From: a virus
Virus record (IMG/VR): IMGVR_UViG_3300021962_000040
Coordinates: 1 to 64,000 of that record
DNA: 64,000 bases
Direction: 5' to 3' (one strand)
The notes beneath the pieces are model-generated. The model had not been told where the DNA came from. It saw only the letters and a program-made list of their open reading frames with translations, and searched no databases. Shown here piece after piece: positions 13,352 through 53,568 of the stretch; the stretch's first letter is position 1; each line of letters begins with the position of its first letter. The translations under genes were made by a program, and so were the position numbers.

Positions 13352-13559
13352 ATGAATAAGAAGATCTCTTCCAGGCTCACCCTGGTTGTGGATTTGATTG
13401 AACATAGTTTACTGTTCACCTGTTGTAAGTGCACTACAGAGCAGGGTCCATCACATTATACCTTGAGGCATTTAAAACTTATTGGGTAATTACTCCCATA
13501 AGTCAAGGTTTCTTTCAACGGTGCTAATCTGTCTTATGTAAGAGATCTTTCTTACTCAT
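13352..13559 (-). ncRNA. putative structured ncRNA (~210 nt multibranch) between tRNA-Leu and the helicase
   Basis: Ends pair over ~19 bp (13352-13370 with 13540-13559); internal helices ACCTTGA/TCAAGGT, CTTATGGG/CCCAATAAG, TGAACA/TGTTCA, CCAGG/CCTGG; no ORF in the track. Confidence 0.65.
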
Positions 13560-13561
13560 AG

Positions 13562-13644
13562 TAGCCGGGATGGGACTTGAACCCACACGAGCAAATGCTC
13601 AAGAGATTTTAAGTCTCTCATGTCTACCTTTTCATCACCCAGCT
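13562..13644 (-). tRNA. tRNA-Leu (anticodon UAA)
   Basis: Acceptor AGCTGGG/CCCGGCT, D-loop GGTAGAC, anticodon arm AGAGA-CTTAAAA-TCTCT, long variable arm, T arm GTGGG-TTCAAGT-CCCAT; CCA not encoded. Confidence 0.92.
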
Positions 13645-14074: not shown

Positions 14075-14148
14075 TGATCCCATCTGGACTTGAACCAGAA
14101 ACCTACAGCTTAGAAGGCTGTTGCTCTATCCAATTGAGCTATAGGACC
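14075..14148 (-). tRNA. tRNA-Arg (anticodon UCU)
   Basis: GGTCCTATAGCTCAATTGGATAGAGC-ACAGC-CTTCTAA-GCTGT...GGTTCAAGTCC...TGGGATCA cloverleaf. Confidence 0.95.
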
Positions 14149-21917: not shown

Positions 21918-21943
21918 TTCTGAACAAATAAAAACCAAAAATC

Positions 21944-23162: not shown

Positions 23163-23188
23163 GCTGTAACAGTAAACCAACAAAAAAA

Positions 23189-24049: not shown

Positions 24050-24360
24050 AAAAATTTATAGGTGCATTTAAAAGCACACCGCAAATTCTTGAGGGAATCA
24101 AGAATAGTGTATTCAAGAAAGAGCATATTGAAGCTGAGGCTGCTTTGAGATGGGGTATTTGTAAATCTTGCCCGTCTCTTGATACAGCAGGAAGCAAATG
24201 TTTTGCTCCAGGTACTCAACCATGCTGTGGTGAATGTGGTTGTAGTCTGGGTTTCAAAACAAGATCTTTAGCATCATCTTGCCCATTGGGTAAGTGGAAT
24301 GCTATCATGGATGAGGAAACAGAACATAAACTTAAAACCAACATCAAATATGAAGATTGA
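24040..24360 (+). CDS. Cys-rich hypothetical protein
   Basis: ICKSCP...CCGECGC.L..K.R....SCPLGKW. Confidence 0.7.
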   Translation: MGLEKFIGAFKSTPQILEGIKNSVFKKEHIEAEAALRWGICKSCPSLDTAGSKCFAPGTQPCCGECGCSLGFKTRSLASSCPLGKWNAIMDEETEHKLKTNIKYED

Positions 24361-24544
24361 AATAGAAGAAAGAGAACTTGATGCATTACCTAATGATATG
24401 GAATTGGGTAAGTATGTAAGATTTAAAATGGCTGAAGCAAAGAAGGCTCAGTCAACTAGTATTTCTAACGGTATTCCTAAATGGACTACAACAGCAACAG
24501 CTGATGTAGAGATTGAATGGAATCCAGATTCAAATGTAATATGA
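24350..24544 (+). CDS. hypothetical protein (start MKIEIE at 24350)
   Basis: PNDMELGKYVR motif; AAAACCAAC leader. Confidence 0.6.
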   Translation: MKIEIEERELDALPNDMELGKYVRFKMAEAKKAQSTSISNGIPKWTTTATADVEIEWNPDSNVI

Positions 24545-26184: not shown

Positions 26185-26460
26185 ATGGAAAACCAGAAAA
26201 TTGTGCCAGTGGGCAAGAGAGTATTGATCAAGGAGAAGAAACCGGGGGAGTTCTTTCCGGGGACCAAGATAATGATTCCTGATGCAGCTAGAGAAAAGAC
26301 ATTTCAAGGCTACATTGTGGGCATTGGTAAAGAAGTAACTGAAGTAAATGTAGGTGATCTTATTCAGTATGTAGATTACGCAACACCCGTTGAGATGAAG
26401 CATAATGGTGAGAAGCATTTACTTATTGCTCAAGGTGATATTCTTGCTGTGATTGAATGA
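26185..26460 (+). CDS. groES: GroES-like co-chaperonin
   Basis: IVPVGKRVLIK, IMIPDAAREK..QG.IVGIG, V.VGD, GEKHLLI..GDILAVIE. Confidence 0.85.
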   Translation: MENQKIVPVGKRVLIKEKKPGEFFPGTKIMIPDAAREKTFQGYIVGIGKEVTEVNVGDLIQYVDYATPVEMKHNGEKHLLIAQGDILAVIE

Positions 26461-28643
26461 ACAGAATAGTTCCAACATATGAAAATGGTCAGTGGACTAC
26501 TACGGAGTTTTATACTACGCAGGAGTTCATTGACTTTTTACTGAGCATCTTCAAAGAACCTGGTCAGTATGAGTATGATGAAACATCATTCTTGTTTAAC
26601 AAAGAAGCACAAAACTTCAACAAGAATGGTTTTTATTGCTCAGCTCCTTTTAGATCAAAAGACTTTAACGTTTATTGGGAAGCAGAAAAGGAGAAGTGCC
26701 GTAATGGTGCAATCTACAGGAATGCTGGAAAGACCTGGTATCTTACAAGAGACTACTACATGTGGTTAAACTTTCTTCCAATCTATGATAAAGAAGAGAA
26801 GAAATATGGGTTTGCCAAAGTCAGAGATGCACAGTATCATATGGCTATCTATGAACTGTTGGCTGAGTTAAGTAATAAACACTCAGCTATTTTAAAGAAA
26901 CGTCAGATTGCTTCTTCTTACTTCCACATGGGTAAGCTTATAAACACCTACTGGTTTGAAGAAGGTAGTGTATGTAAGATTGGTGCTTCACTAAAAGACT
27001 ACATCAATGATAAAGGTTCTTGGAAATTCTTGGATGAGTACAAAGATTTCTTGAATGAACATACTGCTTGGTATAGACCAAGTAATCCTGAAAAGGTTCT
27101 TTTATGGCAACAACAGATTGAAGTAAGAGTTGGTAACAGAAAGACTACCAAAGGTTTAAAATCTAAGATACAAGGTGCCTCTTTTGAGAAGAGTGCAACA
27201 ACAGGTGTCGGTGGTCCTACTACATACTTTTTCCATGAGGAAGCTGGTATTGCTCCAAAGATGATGGAGACTTATGAATACTTAAGACCTGCAATGTCTT
27301 CCGGTATGGTTACTACAGGTATGTTTATTGCTGCAGGATCTGTGGGTGATTTGGAACAATGTAATCCTTTGAAGGACATGGTTCTTAATCCAACAAACAA
27401 TGACATCTATGCTGTAGAAACAAACCTGCTTGATGCAGATGGAACCATTGGCTTAGCCGGCTTATTTATTCCTGAGCAATGGTCAATGCCCCCATACATT
27501 GATGAGTATGGTAACTCATTAGTTGAAGAGGCTTTGAAGGCAATTCATGCTGAAAGAGAAAAGTGGAAGTCTGAACTAAACCCAGAGCAGTATCAGTTAC
27601 GTATATCTCAGAAACCAACCAATATAGCTGAAGCATTTGCTTATAGAAAGGAGTCTATCTTTCCACAGGGTATTATTTCTAAGCAACTTAAAAGGATTGA
27701 AGACAAAGAATATTCTTTTGAGCATATTGAATTGGAAAGAACTGTAGAAGGTATTGAAGCTAAAAGAAGTAACAAACTTCCTATATCACAGTTTCCGGTA
27801 GATAAGAAGATGCAAGATAAATCTGGTGTCCTTGTTGTATGGGAAAGACCTGTTAAAAATCCTTCATTTGGGATGTACTATGCATCTGTTGACCCCGTGT
27901 CAGAAGGTAAAACAACTACTTCAGATTCACTCTGTAGTATCTTTGTTTACAAGAGTGCTGTAGAGGTTACAAGAGAAACTCCTGATGGATATGAATCCTT
28001 TATTGAGAAAGATAAAATTGTAGCAGCTTGGTGTGGTAGATATGATGATGTTAACAAGACTCATGAGCAATTGGAAAAGATCATTGAATGGTACAATGCT
28101 TGGACTGTTGTGGAGAACAACATCTCTTTGTTTATCCAGTACATGATCTCTAGAAGAAAGCAGAGATACTTGGTACCAAAGCAACAAATTCTATTCTTAA
28201 AAGATCTTGGTTCAAATGCAACAGTATACCAAGAGTATGGATGGAAGAACACCGGTATTCTATTTAAGAGTCACCTCATCTCTTATGCAATTGAGTTCTT
28301 AAGAGAAGAGACTGATACTGAGTTAGATAACCATGGAAATATTCTCAGTACTACATTGGGTATTGAAAGGATTCCAGATCCTATGTTGTTGAAAGAGATG
28401 CTTGCTTACCAACCTGGTGTCAACGTTGACCGTTTGGTAGCTTTCTCTGCATTGGTTGCATTTGCCAAAATTCAACAGTCAAACAGAGGATTTACTAAAA
28501 GAAAAGAAGAAGATGCAACAAAGAATTTGCAAAATCAAAATAATTTGTATAAATTAAAGTATAGTCCGTTTAAAAACTTGGAACGTAATAAAACTATGAC
28601 TTCAGGTAGACCAGGGAGATCTGCTTTTAAAAACTTTAGATAA
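26457..28643 (+). CDS. terL: terminase large subunit
   Basis: LKKRQIASSY, FFHEEAG Walker B, nuclease ASVDPV...SDSL, VENN, NVDRLVA. Confidence 0.9.
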   Translation: MNRIVPTYENGQWTTTEFYTTQEFIDFLLSIFKEPGQYEYDETSFLFNKEAQNFNKNGFYCSAPFRSKDFNVYWEAEKEKCRNGAIYRNAGKTWYLTRDYYMWLNFLPIYDKEEKKYGFAKVRDAQYHMAIYELLAELSNKHSAILKKRQIASSYFHMGKLINTYWFEEGSVCKIGASLKDYINDKGSWKFLDEYKDFLNEHTAWYRPSNPEKVLLWQQQIEVRVGNRKTTKGLKSKIQGASFEKSATTGVGGPTTYFFHEEAGIAPKMMETYEYLRPAMSSGMVTTGMFIAAGSVGDLEQCNPLKDMVLNPTNNDIYAVETNLLDADGTIGLAGLFIPEQWSMPPYIDEYGNSLVEEALKAIHAEREKWKSELNPEQYQLRISQKPTNIAEAFAYRKESIFPQGIISKQLKRIEDKEYSFEHIELERTVEGIEAKRSNKLPISQFPVDKKMQDKSGVLVVWERPVKNPSFGMYYASVDPVSEGKTTTSDSLCSIFVYKSAVEVTRETPDGYESFIEKDKIVAAWCGRYDDVNKTHEQLEKIIEWYNAWTVVENNISLFIQYMISRRKQRYLVPKQQILFLKDLGSNATVYQEYGWKNTGILFKSHLISYAIEFLREETDTELDNHGNILSTTLGIERIPDPMLLKEMLAYQPGVNVDRLVAFSALVAFAKIQQSNRGFTKRKEEDATKNLQNQNNLYKLKYSPFKNLERNKTMTSGRPGRSAFKNFR

Positions 28644-31399
28644 TGAAGGTATATAACGCATTGGATTTAAAGAAAGGTGCAAAGGGAGAGGGGTATCCAA
28701 CTACCACTAGTCTCACTCAGCCTATTCAATTCCTACCTGCAAAGGAGAAGGATGATGATTGGGCAGCCTGGAACATTGATTGGTTAGAGCTTCAGGGGAT
28801 GGAGTTTTTAAGATTGAATGCAAGAAAGTTGTTGAAAAACTACAAGCTTGCAAAAGGTATCATTGATAAAACAGACTACATTGTAGCAGAAGATAATGAC
28901 TATGCTCAGATGATTGATGTCTTAACCAAAGAAGATCACTCAGCATTAGAGCTTAAGTTCTACCCTATTATTCCCAACGTGGTTAATGTACTATGTGGGG
29001 AATTCTCTAAAAGATACAACAAGATTCAGTTTAGAGCGGTAGATGATCTATCCTATAATGAAATGCTTGAGCAAAAAAGAATCCAAGTAGAGCAAAATCT
29101 ACTTGCTGATGCTGAAGCAAAGTTAATTGCTAGAATGATTGAGATGGGAATGGACCCAGATAGTCCAGAAGCTCAACAGCAATTAGCTCCTGAAAATATT
29201 AAATCACTGCCTGAGATTGAAGACTTCTTTAGAAAGGATTATAGATCTATAATTGAGGAGTGGGCAGGACATCAATACAATGTTGATGAAGAAAGATTCA
29301 AGATGGCAGAACTAGAAGAACGTGGTTTCCGTGATATGTTAATCACAGACCGTGAGTTCTGGCATTTCAGAATGTTAGAAGATGATTATGAGGTTGAACT
29401 TTGGAACCCTGTTCTAACTTTCTACCACAAGTCTCCAGATTCAAGATATATTTCTGAAGGTAACTTTGTTGGAAAACTTGATTTAATGACTGTATCAGAT
29501 GTAATTGATAAGTATGGTTATTTGATGACAGAAGAACAATTACATTCATTACAGAATATTTACCCTGCAAAATCAGCACTATATCAAGTTAATGGTTACC
29601 AGAATGATGGAGCTTATTATGATCCAAGTAGATCACATGAGTGGAATACAAATTCTCCTGGTTTAGCTTATAGACAATTTACTAGCAACTGGTCTAATGA
29701 TCCAGCTAGAGGTGGTGATATTGTAAGTGCAATCTTAAGTGAAAGTGATGATGTACTAAATTGGGGTCAAGGTTATTTGATGAGAGTTTGTACAGTCTAT
29801 TGGAAAACTCAAAGAAAAGTTGGTCACTTGACTAGGATTACTGAAGATGGAGAAATCATTCAAGAAATTATTGATGAAACATTCAAAGTAACTGAAAAAC
29901 CAATTTATGATACATCAGTATTTAAAAACAAGACAAAGGAGAATCTTCTCCAAGGTGAACACGTTGATTGGATCTGGATTAATGAAGTATGGGGCGGAGT
30001 TAAGATTGGTCCAAACTTGCCTGCTTTCTGGAGATCAAACATTAGTAATAATATTAATCCCATTTACGTAGGAGTTAATAGAACTAAGCCTGGAAGAATT
30101 CCATTCCAATTTAAAGGATCACAAACATTATATGGCTGCAAGCTACCTGTAGAAGGTAGAGTATTCTCTGATAGAAATACTAAATCAACTTCTTTGGTAG
30201 ATTTGATGAAAGCTTACCAGGTTGGCTATAACATGGTAAATAATCAGATTGCAGACATCTTAGTAGATGAGTTGGGTACTGTTATCATGTTTGATCAGAA
30301 CGCATTACCTAGACACTCTATGGGTGAAGATTGGGGTAAAGGAAACTATGCTAAAGCATATGTTGCAATGAAGGATTTCCAAATGCTTCCTTTAGACACA
30401 TCTATTACCAATACGGAGAATGCTACTAATTTTAATCATTACCAGGTTCTGAACATGGAACAAAGTAATAGATTGATGGGTAGAATTAATCTGGCTAATT
30501 ACTTTAAGCAACAGTGTTTTGATGCAATTGGTGTTAATCCTCAGAGACTTGGTGCCCCAATGGGTCAAGAAACTGCAACAGGAGTTACACAAGCATTGAA
30601 TCAATCTTATGCTCAAACAGAGATTTACTTTAATCAGCACTCTGATTATTTAATGCCAAGAGTGCATCAGATGAGAACTGACTTGGCTCAGTACTATCAA
30701 AGTAGAAATCCAAGTGTAAGATTAAGCTACATTACAACTGAAGCTGAAAAGGTTAACTTTACTATTAACGGTACTGATCTCTTATTAAGAGACTTTAATA
30801 TTTTTGCTACAACTAAAACTAACCATAGAGCTATTCTTGATCAATTGAAGCAATTAGCTCTTACAAATAATACTACTGGTGCAACAATCTTTGATCTTGG
30901 TAATATTGTCAAAGCTGATTCAATTGCTGAAGTCACCGATATCCTCAAGGGTGCGGAGCAGAAGCAAATGGCTATGAGAGAGCAAGAAATGCAGAACCAA
31001 AGACAAATGCAGGAACAAGCTCTTCAAGCAAGAACTCAAGAAGAACAAATGAAACTTCAGTTTGAATCTGATCAAAATGATAAGAACAGACAGAATGAGA
31101 TTCTTGTTGCAGAGATTAGAGCTGCCGGCTATGGTTCTGGAGTTGATATCAATCAAAACATGATGTCTGATTACAGAGATGCCATGAGTGATATTAAAAA
31201 GACTACAGAATATCAAGAGCAGATGAATCTAAAACGTGAGCAAAATGCTATGACAAATAGCATGACTCAGAAGAAACTTGATGTGGAGAGAGATAGACTA
31301 GCAACTCAAAGAGATATTGCAAATACTCAACTTGAAATTGCTAGAGAGAATAAGAATAAGTATGATTCAAAAGGCAAACCTAATAGCAAAGAAAAATAA
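28643..31399 (+). CDS. portal protein
   Basis: 918 aa after terL; YPIIPN.VNVL.GE, SLVDLMK.YQ, G...QRLG, coiled-coil C-terminus typical of crAss portals. Confidence 0.85.
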   Translation: MKVYNALDLKKGAKGEGYPTTTSLTQPIQFLPAKEKDDDWAAWNIDWLELQGMEFLRLNARKLLKNYKLAKGIIDKTDYIVAEDNDYAQMIDVLTKEDHSALELKFYPIIPNVVNVLCGEFSKRYNKIQFRAVDDLSYNEMLEQKRIQVEQNLLADAEAKLIARMIEMGMDPDSPEAQQQLAPENIKSLPEIEDFFRKDYRSIIEEWAGHQYNVDEERFKMAELEERGFRDMLITDREFWHFRMLEDDYEVELWNPVLTFYHKSPDSRYISEGNFVGKLDLMTVSDVIDKYGYLMTEEQLHSLQNIYPAKSALYQVNGYQNDGAYYDPSRSHEWNTNSPGLAYRQFTSNWSNDPARGGDIVSAILSESDDVLNWGQGYLMRVCTVYWKTQRKVGHLTRITEDGEIIQEIIDETFKVTEKPIYDTSVFKNKTKENLLQGEHVDWIWINEVWGGVKIGPNLPAFWRSNISNNINPIYVGVNRTKPGRIPFQFKGSQTLYGCKLPVEGRVFSDRNTKSTSLVDLMKAYQVGYNMVNNQIADILVDELGTVIMFDQNALPRHSMGEDWGKGNYAKAYVAMKDFQMLPLDTSITNTENATNFNHYQVLNMEQSNRLMGRINLANYFKQQCFDAIGVNPQRLGAPMGQETATGVTQALNQSYAQTEIYFNQHSDYLMPRVHQMRTDLAQYYQSRNPSVRLSYITTEAEKVNFTINGTDLLLRDFNIFATTKTNHRAILDQLKQLALTNNTTGATIFDLGNIVKADSIAEVTDILKGAEQKQMAMREQEMQNQRQMQEQALQARTQEEQMKLQFESDQNDKNRQNEILVAEIRAAGYGSGVDINQNMMSDYRDAMSDIKKTTEYQEQMNLKREQNAMTNSMTQKKLDVERDRLATQRDIANTQLEIARENKNKYDSKGKPNSKEK

Positions 31400-31533
31400 T
31401 TTGAAACCTATGTGAAAATATATTTTGGTGATAGCTATATACTGCAGAAAATGTGGAGCTATCCCAAAATATTATAGGTTTAACTCAAATATTCTTTCTA
31501 TATTGTATATGTAAAACCAACAAAACAAATAGT

Positions 31534-32814
31534 ATGAATACACAGTCAGTAGAAACTAAAGTGGAAAAGGTAGACATTAACCTTGATGAACTGTTTGAAG
31601 GAGCAGCTTCAGCAACTAGTGTTACTATTCCATCTGAGGGTGACAAGAAAAAATCTGAGCCTAAGATGGTGAATATTTTTTCAAAAGAAAAACCAGTAGA
31701 TTTTTCTTTCACTGAGCCAGGTGCAAGTGATGATGAAGAAGATGATACTGATGAAGAAGAAACAGGTGCTGCATCAAAACAACCAACAGCCGCTTCAAAA
31801 AAAGAATCTTCTGATCTTTTAGACTCTTTTATGGATGAGGAAGATGAAGAAGAGAAAGTAGAAACTAGAGGAAGAAAAAAGATTGAAGGAATTGCGGATG
31901 TATTCCAAAAGCTTATTAAAGAGGACAAGATTGTTCCTTTTGAAGATGATAAGAATTTAGAAGAATACAGTTTAAAAGATTGGGAAGAGTTGATTGAAGC
32001 TAACTTAGAAGAAAGAGCTAATCAAGTAAGAAGAGAAACTCCTAAACAATTTTTTGATGCATTACCTCAAGAACTTCAGATTGCAGCACGTTATGTAGCT
32101 AACGGAGGAACTGATCTAAAAAGCCTTTTTGCAACTTTAGCACAAGCTGAAGAAACAAGAGACTTGGATATCAAAAGTGAGAGAGATCAGGAATTAATTA
32201 TCCGTGATTATTTAAAAGCTACAGGCTACGGATCAACTGAAGAAATTGAAGAGGAAATTGAAATTTGGAAAGATCTTGGTAAACTAGAGGCACAAGCATC
32301 TAAGTTCAAACCAAAATTGGATAAGATGCAAGAACAAGTTGTTGCAAGAAAACTTGAAGAACAAGAAATGAGAAGAAAGCAACAAGAGCAAGCATCTCAA
32401 CAATATATGCAGAATGTGTATGAAACACTTAAAGATGGTACTGTAGGTGATGTTAAGATTGATAGAAAGACTCAGAATATGTTATATAACGGTCTTGTTC
32501 AACCTAACTATCCTTCTGTAAGTGGAAGAAATACAAACTTACTTGGTCACTTGTTAGAGAAGTATCAGTTTGTAGAACCTAATTACACATTGATTTCTGA
32601 AGCTCTGTGGCTGCTTTCTGATCCTGATGGATACAAAGCACGTATCATGGAAAAAGGTTCTCAGAAAGCTGTAGAATCTACAGTAAGAAAACTAAAAACT
32701 GAACAAGCTAACAGTGGTGGAAGTTCTCTTGGTGTAGATAAGGTTGAAGAATCTGAAAGACCAATTAGTAAAAGAAAAATACAAAGACCTAATAATATTT
32801 TTAAACGCTTTTAA
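31534..32814 (+). CDS. acidic putative capsid scaffolding protein (start MNTQ at 31534)
   Basis: Acidic, coiled-coil, between portal and MCP; AAAACCAACAAA leader. Confidence 0.65.
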   Translation: MNTQSVETKVEKVDINLDELFEGAASATSVTIPSEGDKKKSEPKMVNIFSKEKPVDFSFTEPGASDDEEDDTDEEETGAASKQPTAASKKESSDLLDSFMDEEDEEEKVETRGRKKIEGIADVFQKLIKEDKIVPFEDDKNLEEYSLKDWEELIEANLEERANQVRRETPKQFFDALPQELQIAARYVANGGTDLKSLFATLAQAEETRDLDIKSERDQELIIRDYLKATGYGSTEEIEEEIEIWKDLGKLEAQASKFKPKLDKMQEQVVARKLEEQEMRRKQQEQASQQYMQNVYETLKDGTVGDVKIDRKTQNMLYNGLVQPNYPSVSGRNTNLLGHLLEKYQFVEPNYTLISEALWLLSDPDGYKARIMEKGSQKAVESTVRKLKTEQANSGGSSLGVDKVEESERPISKRKIQRPNNIFKRF

Positions 32815-32854: not shown

Positions 32855-34474
32855 ATGGCAACTCCTGTTTTAAACAATGGAATTTTCCTGAGAGACACTA
32901 GCTACAAAGCCAGTTCTCACGTAGATTCTTACCACTTAACTCAAATGTTAGGTAGTGCTGAACCCATGGATATGGGTCCAGTGGACTTATGGGCTATGAC
33001 TCAAAAAGTTGAAATGCCCCTTTATCAAATGGCTTCTTTTGGTGGTAAAAATACCATCATGGTTGACAATGCACGTGGAGAGTACAAGTGGCAAACGCCA
33101 ATTGCTCAAGACCTTCCTTTTGTAGTTGTGGATCTTGATCCTCAAAATGCAAGCAAAGGTATTGACGGTACTACTTTCACTATCAAATTGTCTAAGAGAT
33201 CATTTGGTCATGGTGATATCATCACTTATGACAAGTACAACGGTTTAGAATTGTACATTACAGCTTCTGATATCATCCCTGCTGGTGATGGTTTCATCTA
33301 CACTGTACAATTGGTGAACAACAACAACGCTGCAAGTCTTGATAACAAGTATCTTGCTCCTGGAACTAAGTTCTTCCGTAAAGGTTCTGCCCGTGGTGAG
33401 TACGGTGAAAGATTCTCTGACATTGAAACTGGTTCTGGTTTCCGTGAGTTCTACAACTACGTAGGTGGTGCTGAAGCTCACGTTCACTATTCTATTTCTA
33501 GCCGTGCTGACTTAATGATCAAAGGTGGTCTTAATGCTGACGGTACTGTACCTGTAACTGAAATCTGGAGAAACTTTAACCAGGATCAAACTAATCCTTC
33601 TGTTTCTTCTATTGAAGAGCTTGTAGCTTCTATGGGTAAAGCTGGTGCACGTGATGCTTTTGAAAGCGGTAAATTGTCACGCACATTTGTTACCAATATG
33701 GAAGCAGCTCACTTAACCAAAATTGCTAATGACATTGAGACTTACTTGATGTGGGGTAAAGGTGGTAGAATTAAGCAAGATGGTCCGGATGATATCAGAT
33801 TGTCTGTAGGTTTGTGGTCTCAATTGGATAACTCATTCAAGAGAGTATACAACAAATCTTCTTTCTCTCTTGATATGTTCAAGTCTGAGCTTTACAACTT
33901 CTACCAAGGTAAAGTTGAGTTCAAAGGTCCAGATCCACAACGTAAGCTTGTTGTACAAACTGGTATCGGTGGTATGCAGTTGATCAACAAAGCTATTGCT
34001 GATGAAGTATACGGATCTGGTTTAGTTCAAAATGCTTCTGAAATTGGTGCTGTTACCGGTAAAGGTATGGATCTTGATTTTGGATTTGCATACACTAGCT
34101 TCACTATTCCTTTCTTGGCTAACGTGAAGTTTGTATTGAACCCTGCATTTGATAACTTGCACACCAATGATATTGAGAATCCTTTGATTGATGGCCGTCC
34201 ATTAAGTTCTTACAGCTTTATTATCTTTGACGTTACTGATAACGGAAATGATAACATCTACTTGTTGAAACTTAACTGGGATAACCAATTGAAGTGGTTC
34301 TACCAAAACGGTACTATGGACTACATGGGACGTACTCAAGGGTTTGCATCTTCTGGTAACTTCAATGGATACCGTGTATACATGAGCCAGACTATGCCTG
34401 CCATCTGGGTAAAAGACCCAACTAAGGTTCTTAAGATTGTTATGAGAAACCCAGTTACTGGCGGATCATTCTAA
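32855..34474 (+). CDS. major capsid protein
   Basis: 539 aa, high-expression codon bias, crAss gene order terL-portal-scaffold-MCP, strong terminator downstream. Confidence 0.85.
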   Translation: MATPVLNNGIFLRDTSYKASSHVDSYHLTQMLGSAEPMDMGPVDLWAMTQKVEMPLYQMASFGGKNTIMVDNARGEYKWQTPIAQDLPFVVVDLDPQNASKGIDGTTFTIKLSKRSFGHGDIITYDKYNGLELYITASDIIPAGDGFIYTVQLVNNNNAASLDNKYLAPGTKFFRKGSARGEYGERFSDIETGSGFREFYNYVGGAEAHVHYSISSRADLMIKGGLNADGTVPVTEIWRNFNQDQTNPSVSSIEELVASMGKAGARDAFESGKLSRTFVTNMEAAHLTKIANDIETYLMWGKGGRIKQDGPDDIRLSVGLWSQLDNSFKRVYNKSSFSLDMFKSELYNFYQGKVEFKGPDPQRKLVVQTGIGGMQLINKAIADEVYGSGLVQNASEIGAVTGKGMDLDFGFAYTSFTIPFLANVKFVLNPAFDNLHTNDIENPLIDGRPLSSYSFIIFDVTDNGNDNIYLLKLNWDNQLKWFYQNGTMDYMGRTQGFASSGNFNGYRVYMSQTMPAIWVKDPTKVLKIVMRNPVTGGSF

Positions 34475-34810: not shown

Positions 34811-34905
34811 AAACTCAAAAAACTTTTGCCGGGAAACCGGCATTAGATTATAAAAAATGTACATAATTATGTACTTTTGAGTTATAATTTAAAAACCAAA
34901 TAATT

Positions 34906-42172: not shown

Positions 42173-45100
42173 ATGGCTATTAAATTATTATCTTCTACCA
42201 AAATAGGCAACTTCACTTTACCCCATACAGATGGGGTAAGTGGACAAGCCTTAGTTACTGACGGTAATGGAAATATATCTTTTGCTCACACAGGAGGTAT
42301 GTCCGGTTTGTCTTTTTCAAATGGTGTTTTAACTGCCACCACAGCATCCGGTAACATTACTGTCAATTTGGATGGAAGATATGCTTTAAGCAGTCATACA
42401 CATGCCTATGATAATTATCAGTCTTGGAATCTAAAAACAAATGGGGTTCAAAGGACAACCGTACAGTCTGGGGGTACATTAGATCTTGTAGCGGGATCTA
42501 ATGTTACTCTCAGCTACGGAGCTGGTGGTGTGGTAACAATTGCTGCTGGATCATCATCTGGAACAGTGACTTCTGTTTCTGGTACAGGAACTGTTTCTGG
42601 TTTAACTTTATCAGGTACTGTAACATCATCTGGTTCATTAACTCTTGGAGGTACTTTAACTTTAACAAGTGCACAGGTTACTTCAGCATTAGGATTTACA
42701 CCATACAATTCAACTAACCCTAGTGGTTACATTACAAGTAGTGGTTCTATTTCAGGAAATGCTGCAACTGCAAATACATTACAAACAGCTAGAACTATAA
42801 CTATTGGCAGTACTGGCAAAACATTTAATGGTTCTGCAAACGTTTCTTGGACATTAGCTGAAATAGGAGCTCAGGCATCTGGTTCATATGCTGCATCTGT
42901 TCACACGCATGATGACAGATATTATACAGAAACAGAGTCAGATGGTAGGTTTATTAGAAAGAATACCTGGGAAGGTAGTGCATATGTAGGCACAGGTGGT
43001 GATTTTTATGGTACTATATTTTATGATAGTAATAATAGTGGTTACTATATGGATCCTGCAAGTACATCTAATTTAAATGGTGTATCTGCTAGACAATACT
43101 ATCAATCATTACACGGTGAGCCTAGAAATAACCTTGGTGATCCTACAGTCACTGATATGGCTTTATTTGATGCACAGTTTAATAACAAAACTGAATTTTA
43201 TCCAGCATCAAAAGTAAAGTTTTTTACATCTAGTGATGGTACAAACTTTACAGAATATACAGGATTTTCTGATGTACAAAAGCAGAAATTTATGGGAGGT
43301 GATGAAGACTCTGGTGTCTTTATTCCTAACCTTACAAATAGATTTAGAATTGAATTAGATGCATCAGGTTATGTATTTGTAAGCATGCTTTACATGTACT
43401 GGTCATCAAACTCACATTCTACAAAGATGCATATATGGGCACGTAGATGTGATAATCAACAATGGTATCAGATTACATCTAGTGACACATATATTAGCTC
43501 ATGGCCCGGTCATGCAACATTACCTTTTCCAAGTATTGCTTGGTTAGAAGGTAATACTACATCTTCCGGTCATCATGATAAAATTAGAATTGAATTCATT
43601 CCTTCTTGGAGTGGACATGCTACATATGGAGGTAATGTAATTTCTCTAAATAGATTGCAGATGTGGGGTGGTTACCCTGCTGGTAAAAGAAATGTATTTA
43701 CTACTTACTATGATAGAAGTATTGCATATCCAGGAACTGTATCAGCACCTACATTTAGTGGAGCATTATCAGGTAATGCAAGTACAGCTACATCAGCAGC
43801 AACTTGGACAATAGGACGTACAATAACTATTGGAAATACTGGTAAAACAGTTAACGGTTCAGGTGATGTAAGTTGGACTTTAGCAGAGATTGGTGCACAA
43901 GCTGCAGGATCTTATGCAGCAGCTAGCCATACTCATGATGATAGATACTACACTGAAACAGAAACTAATAATTTCTTTAGTGGTACAACAGCTATATCAG
44001 GTTACAATAAAGGAAACTGGGATACAGCTTTTGGATGGGGTAATCACGCTTCTGCTGGTTATTTAACATCAGCAAGTCTTTCAGGATATGCTACTCAAAC
44101 TTATGTAAATACAGCTGTTGCAAATGTTATTAACTCTGCACCGGCTGCTTTAGATACTTTAAATGAATTAGCTGCAGCTTTAGGCAATGATGCTAGTTTT
44201 TCTACAACAGTAAGTACATCTCTTGGTAATAGACTTAGAGTTGATACTGCATCACAAGGATTAACAGGAACTCAGCAATCAAATGCAAGAACTAATCTTG
44301 GATTAGGTACAGCAGCAACTTCAAATACTGGAGATTTTGCTACATCTGGTCATAGTCACTCTAATGCTACAACTGGAGCTGCTGGATTTATGTCTGCAGC
44401 TGACAAGAGTAAATTAGATGGAATTGCTTCAGGTGCTACAGCTAATTCTGGTACAGTAACTAGTGTATCTGGAACAGGTAGTTATGGAGGTTTGACTTTA
44501 AGTGGTACAGTAACTAGTTCAGGTTCTTTAACATTAGGCGGAACACCTAGCGGGACTTGGCCAATTTCTGTTTCAGGTAATGCAGCTACAGCAACTTCTG
44601 CAACATCAGCAAGTTTAATGAGTTCTTCAGGAGCTTTAACAACACAACATGGTGATGGTAGAATTGGATATACATATGCACTTACAAATCCTCAAACAGG
44701 ATTATTTGCGGCAACAGATAATGCTAATGCAATTCTCACTGTAAACAGACATCCTGGAGATTACTATAGTCAATTAGGTTTTAGTTCTAATGGTAATCTT
44801 TATTATAGAAACTTTGTAAACACAGCAATTAATACATCTCAAGGATGGCAAACTATATGGACAAGTAGTAGTTTGACTAACTTGAATCAGCTTTCTAATG
44901 GTCCAGGTTATACATCAAATACAGGTACAGTTACAAGTGTATCAGGTACAGGAACTGTAAGTGGATTAACACTTTCAGGAACGGTAACAACTTCTGGTAA
45001 TTTAACATTAGGTGGTACACTTACATTAACAAGTGCTCAAGTTACAACAGCTCTTGGGTTTACTCCTTATAACTCTACTAATCCAAATGGATATATAACT

Positions 45101-49268: not shown

Positions 49269-51686
49269 ATGATACCAGTAAATAATAAGCACATTGCACC
49301 TTGTTCACCAATTTCTTCAAATTGTGTTATCTGGCAGGGTCCAGATATTCCTTGTATCGGCATTTGTAATGGTGATACGGTAAGTGATGTAGTTGGTAAA
49401 TTGGGAGATGAGTTATGCTCCATTATAGATGCAACTTGTCAATGTAATCCTGACCTATCTGGTTTGGATTTAAGCTGTTTACCAGTAAATACCCCGTTAA
49501 ATTTAGAAGCTGTTCTTCAAGCAATTATAGACTATGTATGTAGTCTTAACCCTGGTGGAGGTGGTTCTTTACCTAATATTACTTTACCTACTTGTTTAAG
49601 ATACAATGATCCTTTAGGAAATCCTGTTACTCAGTTACCTTTGGATCAATTTGCAATATTGCTTGGTAATAAGATCTGTCTTATTTTATCTGACATTACT
49701 AACTTACAAGTAGCTGTTGCAAGTTTGCAAGCTAGAGTTACAATCTTAGAGAACTGTGTACTTCCTTGTACACCTTCTACTCCTGGAGGAGATATTGATA
49801 TTTTATCTGATTGTTTATTTCCTGGTACCTTAGTACCCATCTCTCAATTAGTATCTGCTCTTGAAGATGGTTTTTGTGCATTTAGAGATGCTGTAGGTTC
49901 AATAACTCTTATTAACTCTGCTATTTCTTCACAATGTTTATTTGGTAGTACTCCAAAATTAAGTGGTAATGGAAACTATGGTAGTACGGCTGGTTGGGTA
50001 AATACACCAACTACATTAGCAGAATCTAACATCAACCAATGGTTGGTGATTTGTGATTTATATGCTGCTATAAAAAGCATACAAGACAACTGTTGTGTTA
50101 CAGGATGTAATGGTGTTACATTTGATGTAACTTACACAACCATTGATCAAAACAATGACGGTGTTGTAGAAGCATTAGCTCTTGATTTCTCAGGTTCAAA
50201 CATTCCTTCAGGATTTACTGATTGCAATGGTGTAACTATCATGACTATCACTGATTCTATAGGTACATCAATTACAGTACCTGTAAACGTTACTTCTGCC
50301 TCAATGGGTTCTACCATCAATGTAAGCTTATCAGGTTTGAATACCTTGGCCGCTATCACATTGTCTATACCATTCTGTGTTACAGATAATACAAGTCAGT
50401 GTTCTGATAAACAAACCGTAATTATACCTTTAAATATTCCTTGTCCAGCAGTTACAGCAACTTCCGCATTAAATGACATTACTGTATCTTTCCCTAACAC
50501 TTTAGGAACAAGTGCAATATACTCAGTTGTAGCAATTGATACTACTACAGGAGCTACTTTAGGTCAAACTATTATAACTAACCCTGCAGCACTTGTTACT
50601 CATACATTTGGTGGAGCAATTGCTGGTAGAACTTATAACATTATTGTTACAGTAACTCAAGGTTCTTCTACTAAAACTTGTCCTGCTACAAGCGTTGTAG
50701 CTCAAGGTGGAACAACTGGTTATATAATTACTTTCTGTAAAGATAATACCACTGCTAATGTAACATGGACTGGTACGCCTCCTATAGTTGGAACTGTTTA
50801 CAAGTGGACTGATGGTGTACAATTTACAGATGAATGTATTACAGTATCAGCAGGACCTTTAAATTTACAAACAACTGCTTATAACGTAACTACATTAGAT
50901 ATTGTTTCTCAAACAAATTGTACAGTTTGTCAAGCAATTACACCTTCTTTTAACTGTGTCTCAGGTAACTGTGTAGATCCGGGAGATGGAACAGGTGCTT
51001 ATGCTACTTTATTAGACTGTCAACTTAATTGTATTTCACCAGCACCTATATCATATAATTGTCAATCAGGAAACTGCGTAGATCCTGGAGATGGTTCTGG
51101 TACATACTCAACTTTAGCTGCATGTCAAGCCGTATGTTCAGTACCTCCGGTTACTACATATAACTGTGTTTCAGGCAACTGTGTTTCTGTATCTGGTAGC
51201 AGTGGAACTTATACTACATTAGCAGCTTGTCAATTAAACTGTGCTCCTCCTGTTCCTCAAACTTATAACTGTATTTCAGGAAACTGCGTAGATCCGCTTG
51301 ATGGAACCGGTACATATAGTTCTCTTGTAGCTTGTCAAGCAGCATGTGCTTCTCCTAAACCTGAAGTATCTGGTGTAACAGGTTACATGGAACCATGTAT
51401 TGGTGGTACCATTGATGATCACATGGGAGCTTCTGTAACCTTAAGTCAAACTGTTGCTGTAGATACTCAGTTTGATGTAGTAATTGGATATACAGATTTA
51501 AATGGAAGTTGTAATAATCCTTTATATCTTCAAAATATTGTTGTTGAAATATTGGCTGGACAATCTACTTCAAACTTTATTGCATGTAACAATGGGGTTT
51601 ATATTCCTAGTGGTGCTTTAATTTGTACTGCATGTATTACTGCTTGTAATAATCCTGATGTTGATATTGCTTCTTTTTCATGTTAA
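49269..51686 (+). CDS. large Cys-rich structural protein with four tandem Cys repeats
   Basis: CSPISSNCVIWQGPDIPC N-terminus; [YF]NC.SGNCV....G.G.Y.TL..CQ..C x4. Confidence 0.75.
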   Translation: MIPVNNKHIAPCSPISSNCVIWQGPDIPCIGICNGDTVSDVVGKLGDELCSIIDATCQCNPDLSGLDLSCLPVNTPLNLEAVLQAIIDYVCSLNPGGGGSLPNITLPTCLRYNDPLGNPVTQLPLDQFAILLGNKICLILSDITNLQVAVASLQARVTILENCVLPCTPSTPGGDIDILSDCLFPGTLVPISQLVSALEDGFCAFRDAVGSITLINSAISSQCLFGSTPKLSGNGNYGSTAGWVNTPTTLAESNINQWLVICDLYAAIKSIQDNCCVTGCNGVTFDVTYTTIDQNNDGVVEALALDFSGSNIPSGFTDCNGVTIMTITDSIGTSITVPVNVTSASMGSTINVSLSGLNTLAAITLSIPFCVTDNTSQCSDKQTVIIPLNIPCPAVTATSALNDITVSFPNTLGTSAIYSVVAIDTTTGATLGQTIITNPAALVTHTFGGAIAGRTYNIIVTVTQGSSTKTCPATSVVAQGGTTGYIITFCKDNTTANVTWTGTPPIVGTVYKWTDGVQFTDECITVSAGPLNLQTTAYNVTTLDIVSQTNCTVCQAITPSFNCVSGNCVDPGDGTGAYATLLDCQLNCISPAPISYNCQSGNCVDPGDGSGTYSTLAACQAVCSVPPVTTYNCVSGNCVSVSGSSGTYTTLAACQLNCAPPVPQTYNCISGNCVDPLDGTGTYSSLVACQAACASPKPEVSGVTGYMEPCIGGTIDDHMGASVTLSQTVAVDTQFDVVIGYTDLNGSCNNPLYLQNIVVEILAGQSTSNFIACNNGVYIPSGALICTACITACNNPDVDIASFSC

Positions 51687-51703
51687 AATAAATATTTATA
51701 AAT

Positions 51704-52267
51704 ATGGCTTGTAATTGTAATAAATGTAATCCTAATAAACCTTGTGGCTGTAATGATTCTGCTTTACATGCCCCATGTTCTTACACTGATTGCAGTGTAG
51801 GAAGTGAAAGGTGTGAGGATGTTCAGTGTGCAGAATGTGTAAGTTACTGCGGCACTAGCTTTAGAATTGTAGATGGAACTAATATCTTTCAGATTAGTGA
51901 AGGAGATAGACTTGATATGATTCTTCAAAAGCTTTCATTAATTCTTATAAACGGATTTGGACCTTGCAATGCTGATAATGTTCATCATGCTCCATATAAT
52001 GTCTATGCCACTAATATTACAAATACTGGTGTTACCATCTTATGGAATAATGAATCATCATTAACAACAGGTATAAGTGTATACTATGATACAGTAACAT
52101 CACCATCTGGTTGGGTATTGGCAAACTCTATTCCTGTGGCTCCTACAGTTCTTACATATCAATTAGCTAACCTTACTCCGTCTACCCAATATAAAATCAA
52201 ATTAGTATCTAATGATGGGACTACACTTTGCAATAGTGTTGAAATTTTAATCACAACACTTGCTTAA
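51704..52267 (+). CDS. Cys-rich FN3-domain protein
   Basis: MACNCNKC..; AP.NV..TNIT..GVTILW...NLTPSTQY.IKL. Confidence 0.7.
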   Translation: MACNCNKCNPNKPCGCNDSALHAPCSYTDCSVGSERCEDVQCAECVSYCGTSFRIVDGTNIFQISEGDRLDMILQKLSLILINGFGPCNADNVHHAPYNVYATNITNTGVTILWNNESSLTTGISVYYDTVTSPSGWVLANSIPVAPTVLTYQLANLTPSTQYKIKLVSNDGTTLCNSVEILITTLA

Positions 52268-52273
52268 GATAAA

Positions 52274-52344
52274 CAACAAGTGATAGTTTGTTGGTTTTCT
52301 GTCACACCTGTTGGAGAGGTCCTGGTAACAGGGCCTCTTTTTTT
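52274..52344 (+). ncRNA. putative small RNA: hairpin with UUUGUUGGUUUU loop plus intrinsic terminator
   Basis: CAACA..GTGATAG-[TTTGTTGGTTTT]-CTGTCAC..TGTTG, then GAGAGGTCCTG-GTAA-CAGGGCCTCTTTTTTTT. Confidence 0.55.
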
Positions 52345-52389
52345 ATAAAAAAAATAGTATATTTACATCAGAATCTTTAACAAAATCCT

Positions 52390-53568
52390 ATGAATAATAT
52401 AGAAAAAAAGGTTATAGAATCCTTAAAATGGAAAAAACATCCTAGCTATTGTGCACACAGACTGGGATTATCTGAGTCTGAATATTGTCAGATCAGAGAT
52501 AAAGTTAGAAAAAATCATATTAAAGGTCAAGCTTCCAGACAATATAATTTGGACAAAGGGGAAGCAAAATTAGAAGCCTTAGTAACTTTTGAACCAAAAA
52601 ACCCTGATGAAATTATTAAGCTTTTAAACATTAATCCAAAAGAATGGAAGCTTTCTTCATATTGGAATAAACAAGTTCAAGAAGGTTGGAGAATTTCAGC
52701 TCTTGTTACAAAGATTAAAGAAAGTGATGAGGGTAAACTCTTTGAACAACTTTTAAGTAAATGGAATCCTAAAAAACATTACATTGATTCTAAACCAAAA
52801 GTAAATAAAAATTTACCAGATGTATGTGGAGTTATTTCAATGCAAGATATTCATTTTGGTAAGGAAGGTAATACTTTTATTGATCTAGATTTTGAATTAG
52901 CAATAGAAGATTTAATGCAACGGGGTAGTCTATCCCACAATATAAAGGTTCTTTACTTTGTCATAGGAGGTGATCTTATTAATATGGATACCTTTGCCGG
53001 TACAACAACGTCAGGAACACCTTTAGATAACTCTATGAAAGCAACAGATGCTTATGTACAAGCATTTGATTCTATGCACTGGGCTGTTGAATATATGGCC
53101 GGTTATTGTGAGAAACTAGTCATTGTTTATTTGCCAGGTAATCATGATAGATTATCATCATTCCATTTAGCACATGCTTTATCTAAATCAATCCAAGGTC
53201 CCAATATTGAATGGGATGTTGATTATGCTGAAAGAAAGGTGCATGTATGGGGTGAAAACTTTAATGCCTTTGAGCATGGTGATGTTAAGTCAAAAAGCAC
53301 GCCTTTAGTTTATGCTACAGAGTTTCCGTTTCACTGGGGTAGTACAAAGTTCAGAACCTTATTTACAGGCCACTACCATCAAAACAAGAAGGTGGAATAC
53401 TTAACAACAAGTGAGGAAGTAGGGTTTGTTCAAAAAACTCTACCTAGTCTTTGTAAGACGGACTACTACCATTATCATAACAAATATGTAGGTAATAGGA
53501 GATCAGCTGTGCTTGAGCTTCAATCATATACAAAAGGAACTGTCTGTGAATTGGTTTATTCTGCATAA
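52390..53568 (+). CDS. calcineurin-like metallophosphoesterase
   Basis: DIHFG, GGD, PGNHD, HGD, GHYH. Confidence 0.85.
   Translation: MNNIEKKVIESLKWKKHPSYCAHRLGLSESEYCQIRDKVRKNHIKGQASRQYNLDKGEAKLEALVTFEPKNPDEIIKLLNINPKEWKLSSYWNKQVQEGWRISALVTKIKESDEGKLFEQLLSKWNPKKHYIDSKPKVNKNLPDVCGVISMQDIHFGKEGNTFIDLDFELAIEDLMQRGSLSHNIKVLYFVIGGDLINMDTFAGTTTSGTPLDNSMKATDAYVQAFDSMHWAVEYMAGYCEKLVIVYLPGNHDRLSSFHLAHALSKSIQGPNIEWDVDYAERKVHVWGENFNAFEHGDVKSKSTPLVYATEFPFHWGSTKFRTLFTGHYHQNKKVEYLTTSEEVGFVQKTLPSLCKTDYYHYHNKYVGNRRSAVLELQSYTKGTVCELVYSA

Follow-up and report, generated by a model that had tools for sequence, protein, structure and literature searches.

What would a phage do with a small hairpin whose loop is the exact complement of a leader 21 kb away? 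The question is raised by the hairpin and terminator at 52274-52347 of a crAss-like phage from freshwater, within the first 64 kb (the window) of the IMG/VR virus record IMGVR_UViG_3300021962_000040 (117,753 bp, rated 100% complete; 35% G+C). Compared across relatives at the level of sequence, this hairpin is a conserved structured RNA with a fixed single-stranded loop, and the evidence for its structure and conservation is strong. The evidence for its targets is moderate overall, and the solid part of it is one orthologous leader, that of the gene upstream of the major capsid gene. We favour, at somewhat better than even chances, the view that the hairpin is a trans-acting anti-leader RNA controlling the translation of head genes.

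The preliminary description of the locus, a two-tier hairpin with a 12-nt loop followed by an intrinsic terminator, is correct in all its coordinates. The parts are as follows.

52274-52278, plus strand: 5' arm of the outer stem (CAACA), paired with 52309-52313 in the minimum free energy (MFE) fold
52280-52286, plus strand: 5' arm of the inner 7-bp stem, paired with 52299-52305, including one G.U pair
52287-52298, plus strand: 12-nt loop, TTTGTTGGTTTT, the proposed seed
52299-52305, plus strand: 3' arm of the inner stem, from the MFE fold and covariation
52309-52313, plus strand: 3' arm of the outer stem (TGTTG), from the MFE fold
52313-52347, plus strand: intrinsic terminator, a stem-loop at 52313-52340 with 12 pairs (6 of them G-C) and a 4-nt loop, then a T-run

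Folding of 52266-52350 yields an MFE of -31.8 kcal/mol (z = -4.9), which none of 200 shuffled sequences matched. The terminator combines a G+C-rich stem-loop with a U-run on the plus strand, as an intrinsic terminator should.

Relatives of the hairpin were sought in viral contigs through the protein of the downstream gene (52390-53568), which led to 80 loci at 38–72% identity. TTGGTTT is present within 700 nt upstream of the downstream gene in 78 of the 80, in 61 distinct 89-nt versions; 17 loci with duplicate 89-nt segments were excluded from the hairpin alignment and from the covariance-model count. UUGGUUU, the core of the loop, does not change in any of the 61 aligned sequences; position 4 of the loop carries G in 50 of them, A in 10 and U in 1, and the final base U in 56 and C in 5. 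The stem, by contrast with the loop, is free to vary as long as it pairs: all seven inner-stem pairs changed on both sides, and covariation reached 0.480 on the plain MAFFT alignment, which was not fitted to any model, against 0.231 in shuffles (0 of 500 as high). On the model alignment the value was 0.570 against 0.234, again with none of 500 shuffles as high, and it fell to 0.116–0.278 when the partners were slid. The outer arms of the relatives, in an alignment read by eye, differ in sequence yet still pair. A fixed loop on a covarying stem is what the preliminary description had asked relatives to keep, and they do. In single-sequence MFE folds the core is unpaired within the hairpin loop in 56 of 62 cases (loop 10–18 nt, median 12), and a T-run follows 3' of the hairpin in 54 of 62 relatives. 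Among stem cells of the aligned relatives, G.U outnumbers A.C by 53 to 18, from which it follows that the plus strand is the one that folds, as RNA; a binomial p of 4e-5 for this excess is too strong, since the aligned rows are related. An opposite-strand transcript carrying the motif as a decoy, which had been offered as an alternative, is disfavoured by these counts and by a terminator that reads on the plus strand.

A covariance model built from the plain MAFFT alignment of the 89-nt segments found exactly one match, always on the gene strand, in the window and in 60 of the 63 related loci, and none in the other three (L071, L072 and L073). There is a single strong match in the entire 117,753-bp genome and one in each of nine other whole genomes (37.7–70.4 bits), so that the element is single copy in all ten. 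At 52.3 kb every family of Rfam release 15 stayed short of its cut-off, PyrR (27.9 of 54), BTnc201 (20.1 of 105) and FopS (15.2 of 56) scoring best, and the hairpin thus lies outside the FopS and BTnc201 families. It is a new RNA family whose way of working would be of a known kind. An exact 16-mer scan of IMG/VR returned 93 stretches; among the 80 listed, 36 had a stem of at least 5 of 7 pairs plus a T-run by a crude test, and the others were mostly chance matches inside coding sequence. We also observed the same 16-mer in an unrelated, Shine-Dalgarno (SD)-using lineage of about 44–46% G+C (L262, L298, L300, L306, L310, L313, L322 and L329), where a G+C-rich hairpin of 11 bp in a spacer has it as its loop and no terminator hairpin follows; this may be chance or a common loop motif.

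The position of the hairpin relative to its neighbours bears on how it could be made.

51704-52267, plus strand: gene of 187 aa with an fn3 domain (Pfam, E = 1.1e-05); the hairpin sits in its 3' untranslated region (3'UTR)
52358-52365, plus strand: promoter-like box TATATTTA, ahead of gene 52390-53568, read from the sequence
52390-53568, plus strand: exonuclease-like gene downstream of the hairpin (phrog_704, E = 5.3e-46)

In 59 of 61 loci a same-strand frame of at least 80 codons stops no more than 60 nt from the loop core, at a median distance of 23 nt, and in the window the stop codon at 52265-52267 ends 6 nt before the outer stem. With a stop codon this close there is no space for a promoter outside coding sequence and, because the upstream genes vary among relatives, a conserved promoter inside them is unlikely. 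A TAnnTTTG-like box, looked for before the hairpin in the window and in relatives, was not visible, and a scan for sigma-70 promoters gave 18 sites against 19.8 expected. Since the hairpin starts a few nucleotides after a stop codon in 59 of 61 loci, we take it to be a 3'UTR element rather than the free-standing small RNA (sRNA) gene that had been supposed. It has two of the marks of a 3'UTR-derived sRNA: a location in the 3'UTR of a coding gene with the terminator in common, and a conserved, accessible seed. The downstream gene starts at a median of 45 nt past the element in relatives, which carry TATATTTG or TACATTTG at the place of the promoter-like box; the Bacteroidota -7 consensus is TAnnTTTG.

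On a tree of capsid proteins, the rows with A at loop position 4 (loop-A) form one clade (support 98) and the three rows with a ...GGUUUCU loop form another, whereas a quick tree of the downstream exonuclease-like gene mixes the loop types. Because the hairpin type tracks the capsid tree and not that of the downstream gene, we place the hairpin in the structural module. The disagreement of the two trees around the spacer 52347-52390 also suggests an exchange of modules with a breakpoint at or near that spacer, between the hairpin and terminator and the next gene. Parts of 50500-53500 are contained in ten metatranscriptome runs. Assembled contigs of four of these runs cover structural genes; such contigs carry no ends, strand or level, and among the pieces listed none spans the hairpin and one ends at 52213, which makes them uninformative on expression. 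Contigs of two runs skip or repeat 105 nt at 51114-51329, within gene 49269-51686, which suggests that the copy number of a 105-nt repeat in this 805-aa tail-region gene varies among strains.

We then considered where in this genome the loop finds its complement. The most extensive matches before start codons are these.

31513-31524, plus strand: 12-nt exact loop complement in the leader of gene 31534-32814, with 9 nt left between it and the ATG
23174-23184, plus strand: 11-nt complement, 4 nt before ATG 23189 of a 120-aa gene (-12.6 kcal/mol, rank 2 of 129)
24334-24343, plus strand: 10-nt complement, 6 nt before ATG 24350
34892-34899, plus strand: 8-nt complement before ATG 34906 of a 338-aa gene past the capsid gene
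21931-21938, plus strand: 8-nt complement before ATG 21944 of the second listed open reading frame (ORF) of the plus-strand late block

The window contains the exact complement, AAAACCAACAAA, in just two places: at the hairpin itself, on the strand opposite the loop, and on the plus strand at 31513-31524, before ATG 31534, where it had been reported. Allowing up to one mismatch raises the matches of the 12-mer in the window to 5, where 1.49 are expected; as many are seen in 3 of 100 shuffles. Ranked by duplex energy with the loop, the leader of 31534 is the best of 129 (-13.2 kcal/mol). These 129 leaders come from crude gene calling over the whole genome (ATG only, at least 150 nt or about 49 codons, greedy by length), which missed the start at 24350. 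The listed ORF 24299-24544 has this ATG inside it, with the 10-nt leader box 6 nt upstream, and probably begins there. The present genome (G000 in the ten-genome comparisons) has six non-self sites of at least 10 nt, three of them lying 4–9 nt before ATGs 23189, 24350 and 31534; box spacing has modes at 4–8 nt before the ATG, an SD-like distance. The orthologous leader of 21944 keeps AAAACCA in 4 of 4 relatives examined, and the leader of the capsid gene is without a full box. SD-like words at -20 to -4 are rare, in 7 of the 129 leaders, which bears out the expectation that SD pairing is little used here and is compatible with, though no proof of, a host of Bacteroidota type.

The AAACCAA variants described before starts 21944, 23189, 23897, 24350, 34906, 39142 and 48278 and, on the minus strand, 15228 and 19045, all do precede an ATG. 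The enrichment of this word at starts is a different matter. Of its 61 genomic copies, 11 lie within 30 nt before the 129 starts (1.6% of the sequence), and it is the commonest of 21 words of the same composition in those leaders; other A-rich words, however, are enriched there about equally, 11- to 17-fold, so that the predicted enrichment was found in the count and was not peculiar to AAACCAA.

The most robust evidence for a target comes from orthologous leaders, which we gathered through relatives of the capsid protein at 80–100% identity (L155, L121 and L150 excluded). In 57 of 61 distinct leaders of the gene that precedes the capsid gene, ACCAAC falls within 30 nt of the ATG, in varied flanks; two of the others have ACCAAT and two have neither. 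When the 90–134 leaders of each genome are ranked by duplex energy with that genome's own loop, the leader of this pre-capsid gene comes first in G000, G016, G020 and G008 and third or fourth in G002, G004, G010 and G001. In 5 of the 10 genomes the best five leaders include that of the gene of about 340 aa past the capsid gene. We also counted leaders with at least 8 nt of loop complementarity and compared these counts with 1,000 permutations of the loop complement in ten genomes. The present genome has 12 such leaders of 129 against a permuted mean of 5.5 (40 of 1,000 permutations as high), and G020 has 10 against 3.4 (15 of 1,000).

The proposed main target sits among the head genes.

26457-28643: large terminase gene
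28643-31399: portal gene
31534-32814, plus strand: gene of 426 aa between the portal and capsid genes, the proposed main target
32855-34474: major capsid gene of Crassvirus type (Pfam Crass_capsid, E = 1.1e-32)

The 426-aa protein had no match in Pfam or PHROG, and its nearest named Atlas cluster is 'scaffolding' with a score of only 0.82, a mere lead; the label 'scaffold' is by gene position alone. Cultured phages offer distant relatives at most: the window had no DNA match in the phage collection, the best capsid match among cultured phages is a Leptolyngbya phage at 27.9% identity, and the protein of gene 52390-53568 matched only distant exonuclease-like genes. The spacer between the portal gene and the next gene, at 31400-31533 and in L081-L160, has the conserved boxes TAGCTATATACTGCA, AAGTTTA and TTATATT(G/A)TATATGTA. 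The last of these lies about 25–35 nt before the ATG, farther relatives having GTAGATTATATATGAAGA instead, and the spacer looks like a late promoter or regulatory region. A 23.1-bit match of the covariance model to the antisense of the 31.5-kb leader raised the possibility that the leader is itself a hairpin and that the two RNAs form a kissing loop of the CopA/CopT or RNA I/RNA II type. We rejected this: of 59 distinct leaders folded, with MFE values from about -0.1 to -2.5 kcal/mol, only 13 hold an unpaired box closed off by a helix.

Given that the loop is not wholly invariant, its natural variants allow a comparison of each loop with its own leaders. In nine loop-A genomes, the boxes in the pre- and post-capsid leaders never have C opposite the loop A and have U or A instead; in genomes with G at position 4 (loop-G), C is commonest opposite that position, and U, which would form a G.U wobble, is also found. 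In one loop-A genome, L023, whose own loop is longer, that loop has a perfect match of 13 nt. The three genomes with a ...GGUUUCU loop carry the leader AGAAACCAACA, whose duplex energy is -15.0 kcal/mol with their own loop and -11.8 with the standard one. Genomes of the standard loop type, too, have leaders with that G, again as G.U. The leaders of 14 loop-G genomes average -10.0 kcal/mol when paired with the G type, their own, and -6.9 when paired with the A type. Both variant paths look like compensatory change by way of a wobble step. Over all leaders, AACCAAC and AACCAAT divide 18 to 17 in loop-G genomes and 3 to 12 in loop-A genomes (Fisher p = 0.06) and show no difference by loop type in the background (p = 0.77), a split that is suggestive only.

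We interpret these results in terms of the following model. Transcription of the tail-gene operon, which ends at 52267, would place the hairpin last in the message, with the adjoining terminator setting the 3' end of the RNA, and the hairpin may be active within the mRNA or after trimming into a short 3'-derived RNA. Its 12-nt U/G-rich loop would pair in trans with the A/C-rich box AAAACCAAC(AAA), 4–9 nt before the start codon of the pre-capsid gene and, in some genomes, also with the box before the post-capsid gene of about 340 aa and with a few other leaders. Leaders of this host type would do without SD pairing and apparently depend on open A-rich sequence, and a duplex there would therefore most likely block binding of the 30S subunit. 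Translation of the head genes would then fall as late tail transcripts build up. The accumulation of the RNA, the pairing of loop and leader, and repression rather than activation are all three what we infer.

Several observations weigh against this model. In eight of the ten genomes, 168–988 of the 1,000 permutations reach the observed number of complementary leaders, the leaders being A-rich. As the excess over permuted loops is confined to G000 and G020, we dropped the idea of regulon-wide enrichment. The preliminary description of a motif of many phage genes was in this respect overstated: the genome has three leader sites of at least 10 nt, of which the closest full relative (95% capsid identity) lacks two, those before 23189 and 24350. 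Across the ten genomes, 20 of 47 non-self sites of at least 10 nt lie within 25 nt of an ATG that opens at least 40 codons, a raw count, uncorrected for composition. The pre-capsid leader falls outside the best five in G005 and G018, and in G017 and G018 the hairpin is kept and the box is missing from that leader. (G018 has a 12-nt perfect complement of its own loop at 43611-43622, inside the last codons of the portal gene and not in a leader.) Loop-A leaders gain nothing from their own loop (-8.3 kcal/mol, against -8.4 with the G loop). Each loop variant arose once on the capsid tree, two events in all, and joint inheritance within a single module could explain both; the co-variation of loop and leader that had been proposed as a check is thus seen in two variants with matching leaders, once each, and is not seen in the loop-A energies. 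Finally, a full 12-bp duplex within a closed 12-nt loop is sterically unlikely, so that the real contact would be shorter. What persists of the proposal that a phage RNA pairs with its own initiation regions is a conserved hairpin, a pre-capsid complement in 57 of 61 leaders and variants that agree with it; its many-gene scope does not.

We entertained other explanations of the same data. An unlikely one is that a protein reads the loop, the hairpin being a 3'-end element that stabilizes the late mRNA or sets termination and read-through in the manner of nut/boxB, with the leader complementarity incidental. A terminator directly preceded by a variable stem with a fixed loop suits recognition by a protein equally well, and both the weak enrichment of complementary leaders in 8 of 10 genomes and the two genomes with a hairpin and no leader box would be expected. 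This leaves unexplained, however, an exact complement in 57 of 61 orthologous leaders, as well as leaders that lack C opposite a loop A and have G opposite a loop C. Moreover, the alignment read by eye has no conserved linear box beside the hairpin, and the downstream gene has its own promoter-like box, so that read-through control would be unneeded. If, on the other hand, the hairpin were a second terminator stem-loop of the ordinary sort, its sequence having no specific role, and the 12-mer matched by chance, the low complexity of the 12-mer and the 3 of 100 shuffles that equal its match count at up to one mismatch would cause no surprise. The core of its loop is nevertheless invariant over 61 distinct sequences with differing stems, in relatives whose flanking protein is down to 38% identical, and its complement is conserved in orthologous leaders; this explanation is already hard to hold, and we give it next to no credence.

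Two further proposals concern the leader box itself, as a site of activation or as a site on DNA. An RNA that activates or guides, recruiting or positioning ribosomes as a substitute for SD:anti-SD pairing or shielding the 5' end of the mRNA from decay, would account for a box at SD-like distance, on the first gene of the head operon, in a genome where SD-like words are scarce. The hairpin, though, is without any link to the ribosome, and the capsid gene's own leader is without a full box; sRNA pairing at such a distance usually represses. Repression is also what PMC11697453 describes. We regard activation as very unlikely, and its most specific form, in which the hairpin RNA stands in for SD:anti-SD pairing on or near the host ribosome, selects phage mRNAs with the AAAACCAAC box and so opens a private initiation channel for head genes, as less likely again than the DNA-level element considered next. 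In that explanation one duplex word would be bound by a single protein both at 52.3 kb and at the leaders; alternatively, a hairpin of single-stranded DNA would serve in replication or packaging or be an N4-type promoter. On double-stranded DNA, the reverse complement of a word is indeed the same site as the word itself, and matching variants would also follow from a changed protein specificity. A duplex site has no need of a covarying stem, though, and the excess of 53 G.U over 18 A.C fits plus-strand RNA. The leader boxes are on the sense strand, the loop-sense 8-mer occurring in 0 or 1 leader per genome (a count biased by the A-richness of leaders), and the element lies inside a transcript end, between stop codon and terminator. 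N4 promoters have 3-nt loops and lie ahead of early genes; we set an N4-type hairpin promoter aside, the loops here being 10–18 nt (median 12) and the element being at the 3' end of a late operon. The DNA-level explanation seems to us slightly less likely than activation.

If the pairing is real, the anti-leader RNA would be a family-wide, phage-encoded regulator of virion-gene translation in a large, uncultured clade of freshwater and marine crAss-like phages. It would act in a host type that starts translation without SD pairing, where riboregulation is barely explored, and would mean that phages of lytic type can balance head and tail output by an RNA borne in a 3'UTR. The claim is a limited one, with a narrow regulon and a loop/leader covariation that rests on two events. 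A 12-nt loop and a box of 9–12 nt are a compact pair for testing, and annotation pipelines would gain a structured RNA family for a spacer presently left blank. In the literature on crAss-like phages and phage small RNAs, judged by title and start of abstract among the papers listed, we found no paper on this hairpin; in a 2025 review of phage sRNAs (PMC12197685), the terms crAss, Bacteroid and capsid each have 0 occurrences. At 13393-13455 on the minus strand, the genome does have a match to a named family, freshwater-1 RNA (Rfam RF02979; 75.9 bits against a cut-off of 72), adjoining two tRNA genes (13562-13644 and 14075-14148, both minus strand).

Comparison with known systems places the hairpin among several kinds of regulatory RNA. 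The lambda boxB has a 5-nt loop with boxA beside it; like nut/boxB, the present element is a small hairpin, fixed in its loop and variable in its stem, upstream of a terminator, but it has a 12-nt loop and a conserved complement elsewhere, and in the alignment read by eye no boxA-like box was seen. Phage antisense RNAs that act on phage leaders include c4 of P1/P7, CI of P4, sar of P22 and OOP of lambda, of which c4 and CI are cut from longer transcripts. The likeness would be that of a small structured phage RNA acting on the ribosome-loading region of the phage's own genes, as proposed here; those RNAs serve immunity or the choice between lysis and lysogeny in temperate phages and act on nearby genes, whereas the hairpin belongs to a crAss-like virion-gene module and would act on head genes 21 kb away. 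In Staphylococcus, RNAIII and RsaE/RoxS pair C-rich hairpin loops with SD sequences. They share with the hairpin a conserved loop motif complementary to a common signal upstream of several start codons; here, unlike there, the signal is an A/C-rich box and not an SD sequence, one or few leaders are well matched, and there is a single hairpin.

The base-pairing sRNAs CpxQ, SroC, DapZ and MicL of enterobacteria derive from 3'UTRs and use the terminator of the parental mRNA. As with these, the hairpin lies between a stop codon and an operon terminator, has a conserved single-stranded seed, and has as its proposed targets translation initiation regions elsewhere in the genome. It differs in being phage-encoded, aimed at the phage's own head genes and known from sequence alone, in holding its seed in a loop rather than a linear stretch, and in a host type without SD pairing that, to our knowledge, is also without Hfq. 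In Bacteroides, the sRNAs GibS and FopS repress through pairing at translation initiation regions, according to PMC11697453. As described there, they have their seed in a single-stranded 5' stretch, have promoters of their own and are chromosomal; in common with the hairpin, they are regulators of Bacteroidota type with a Rho-independent terminator at the end.

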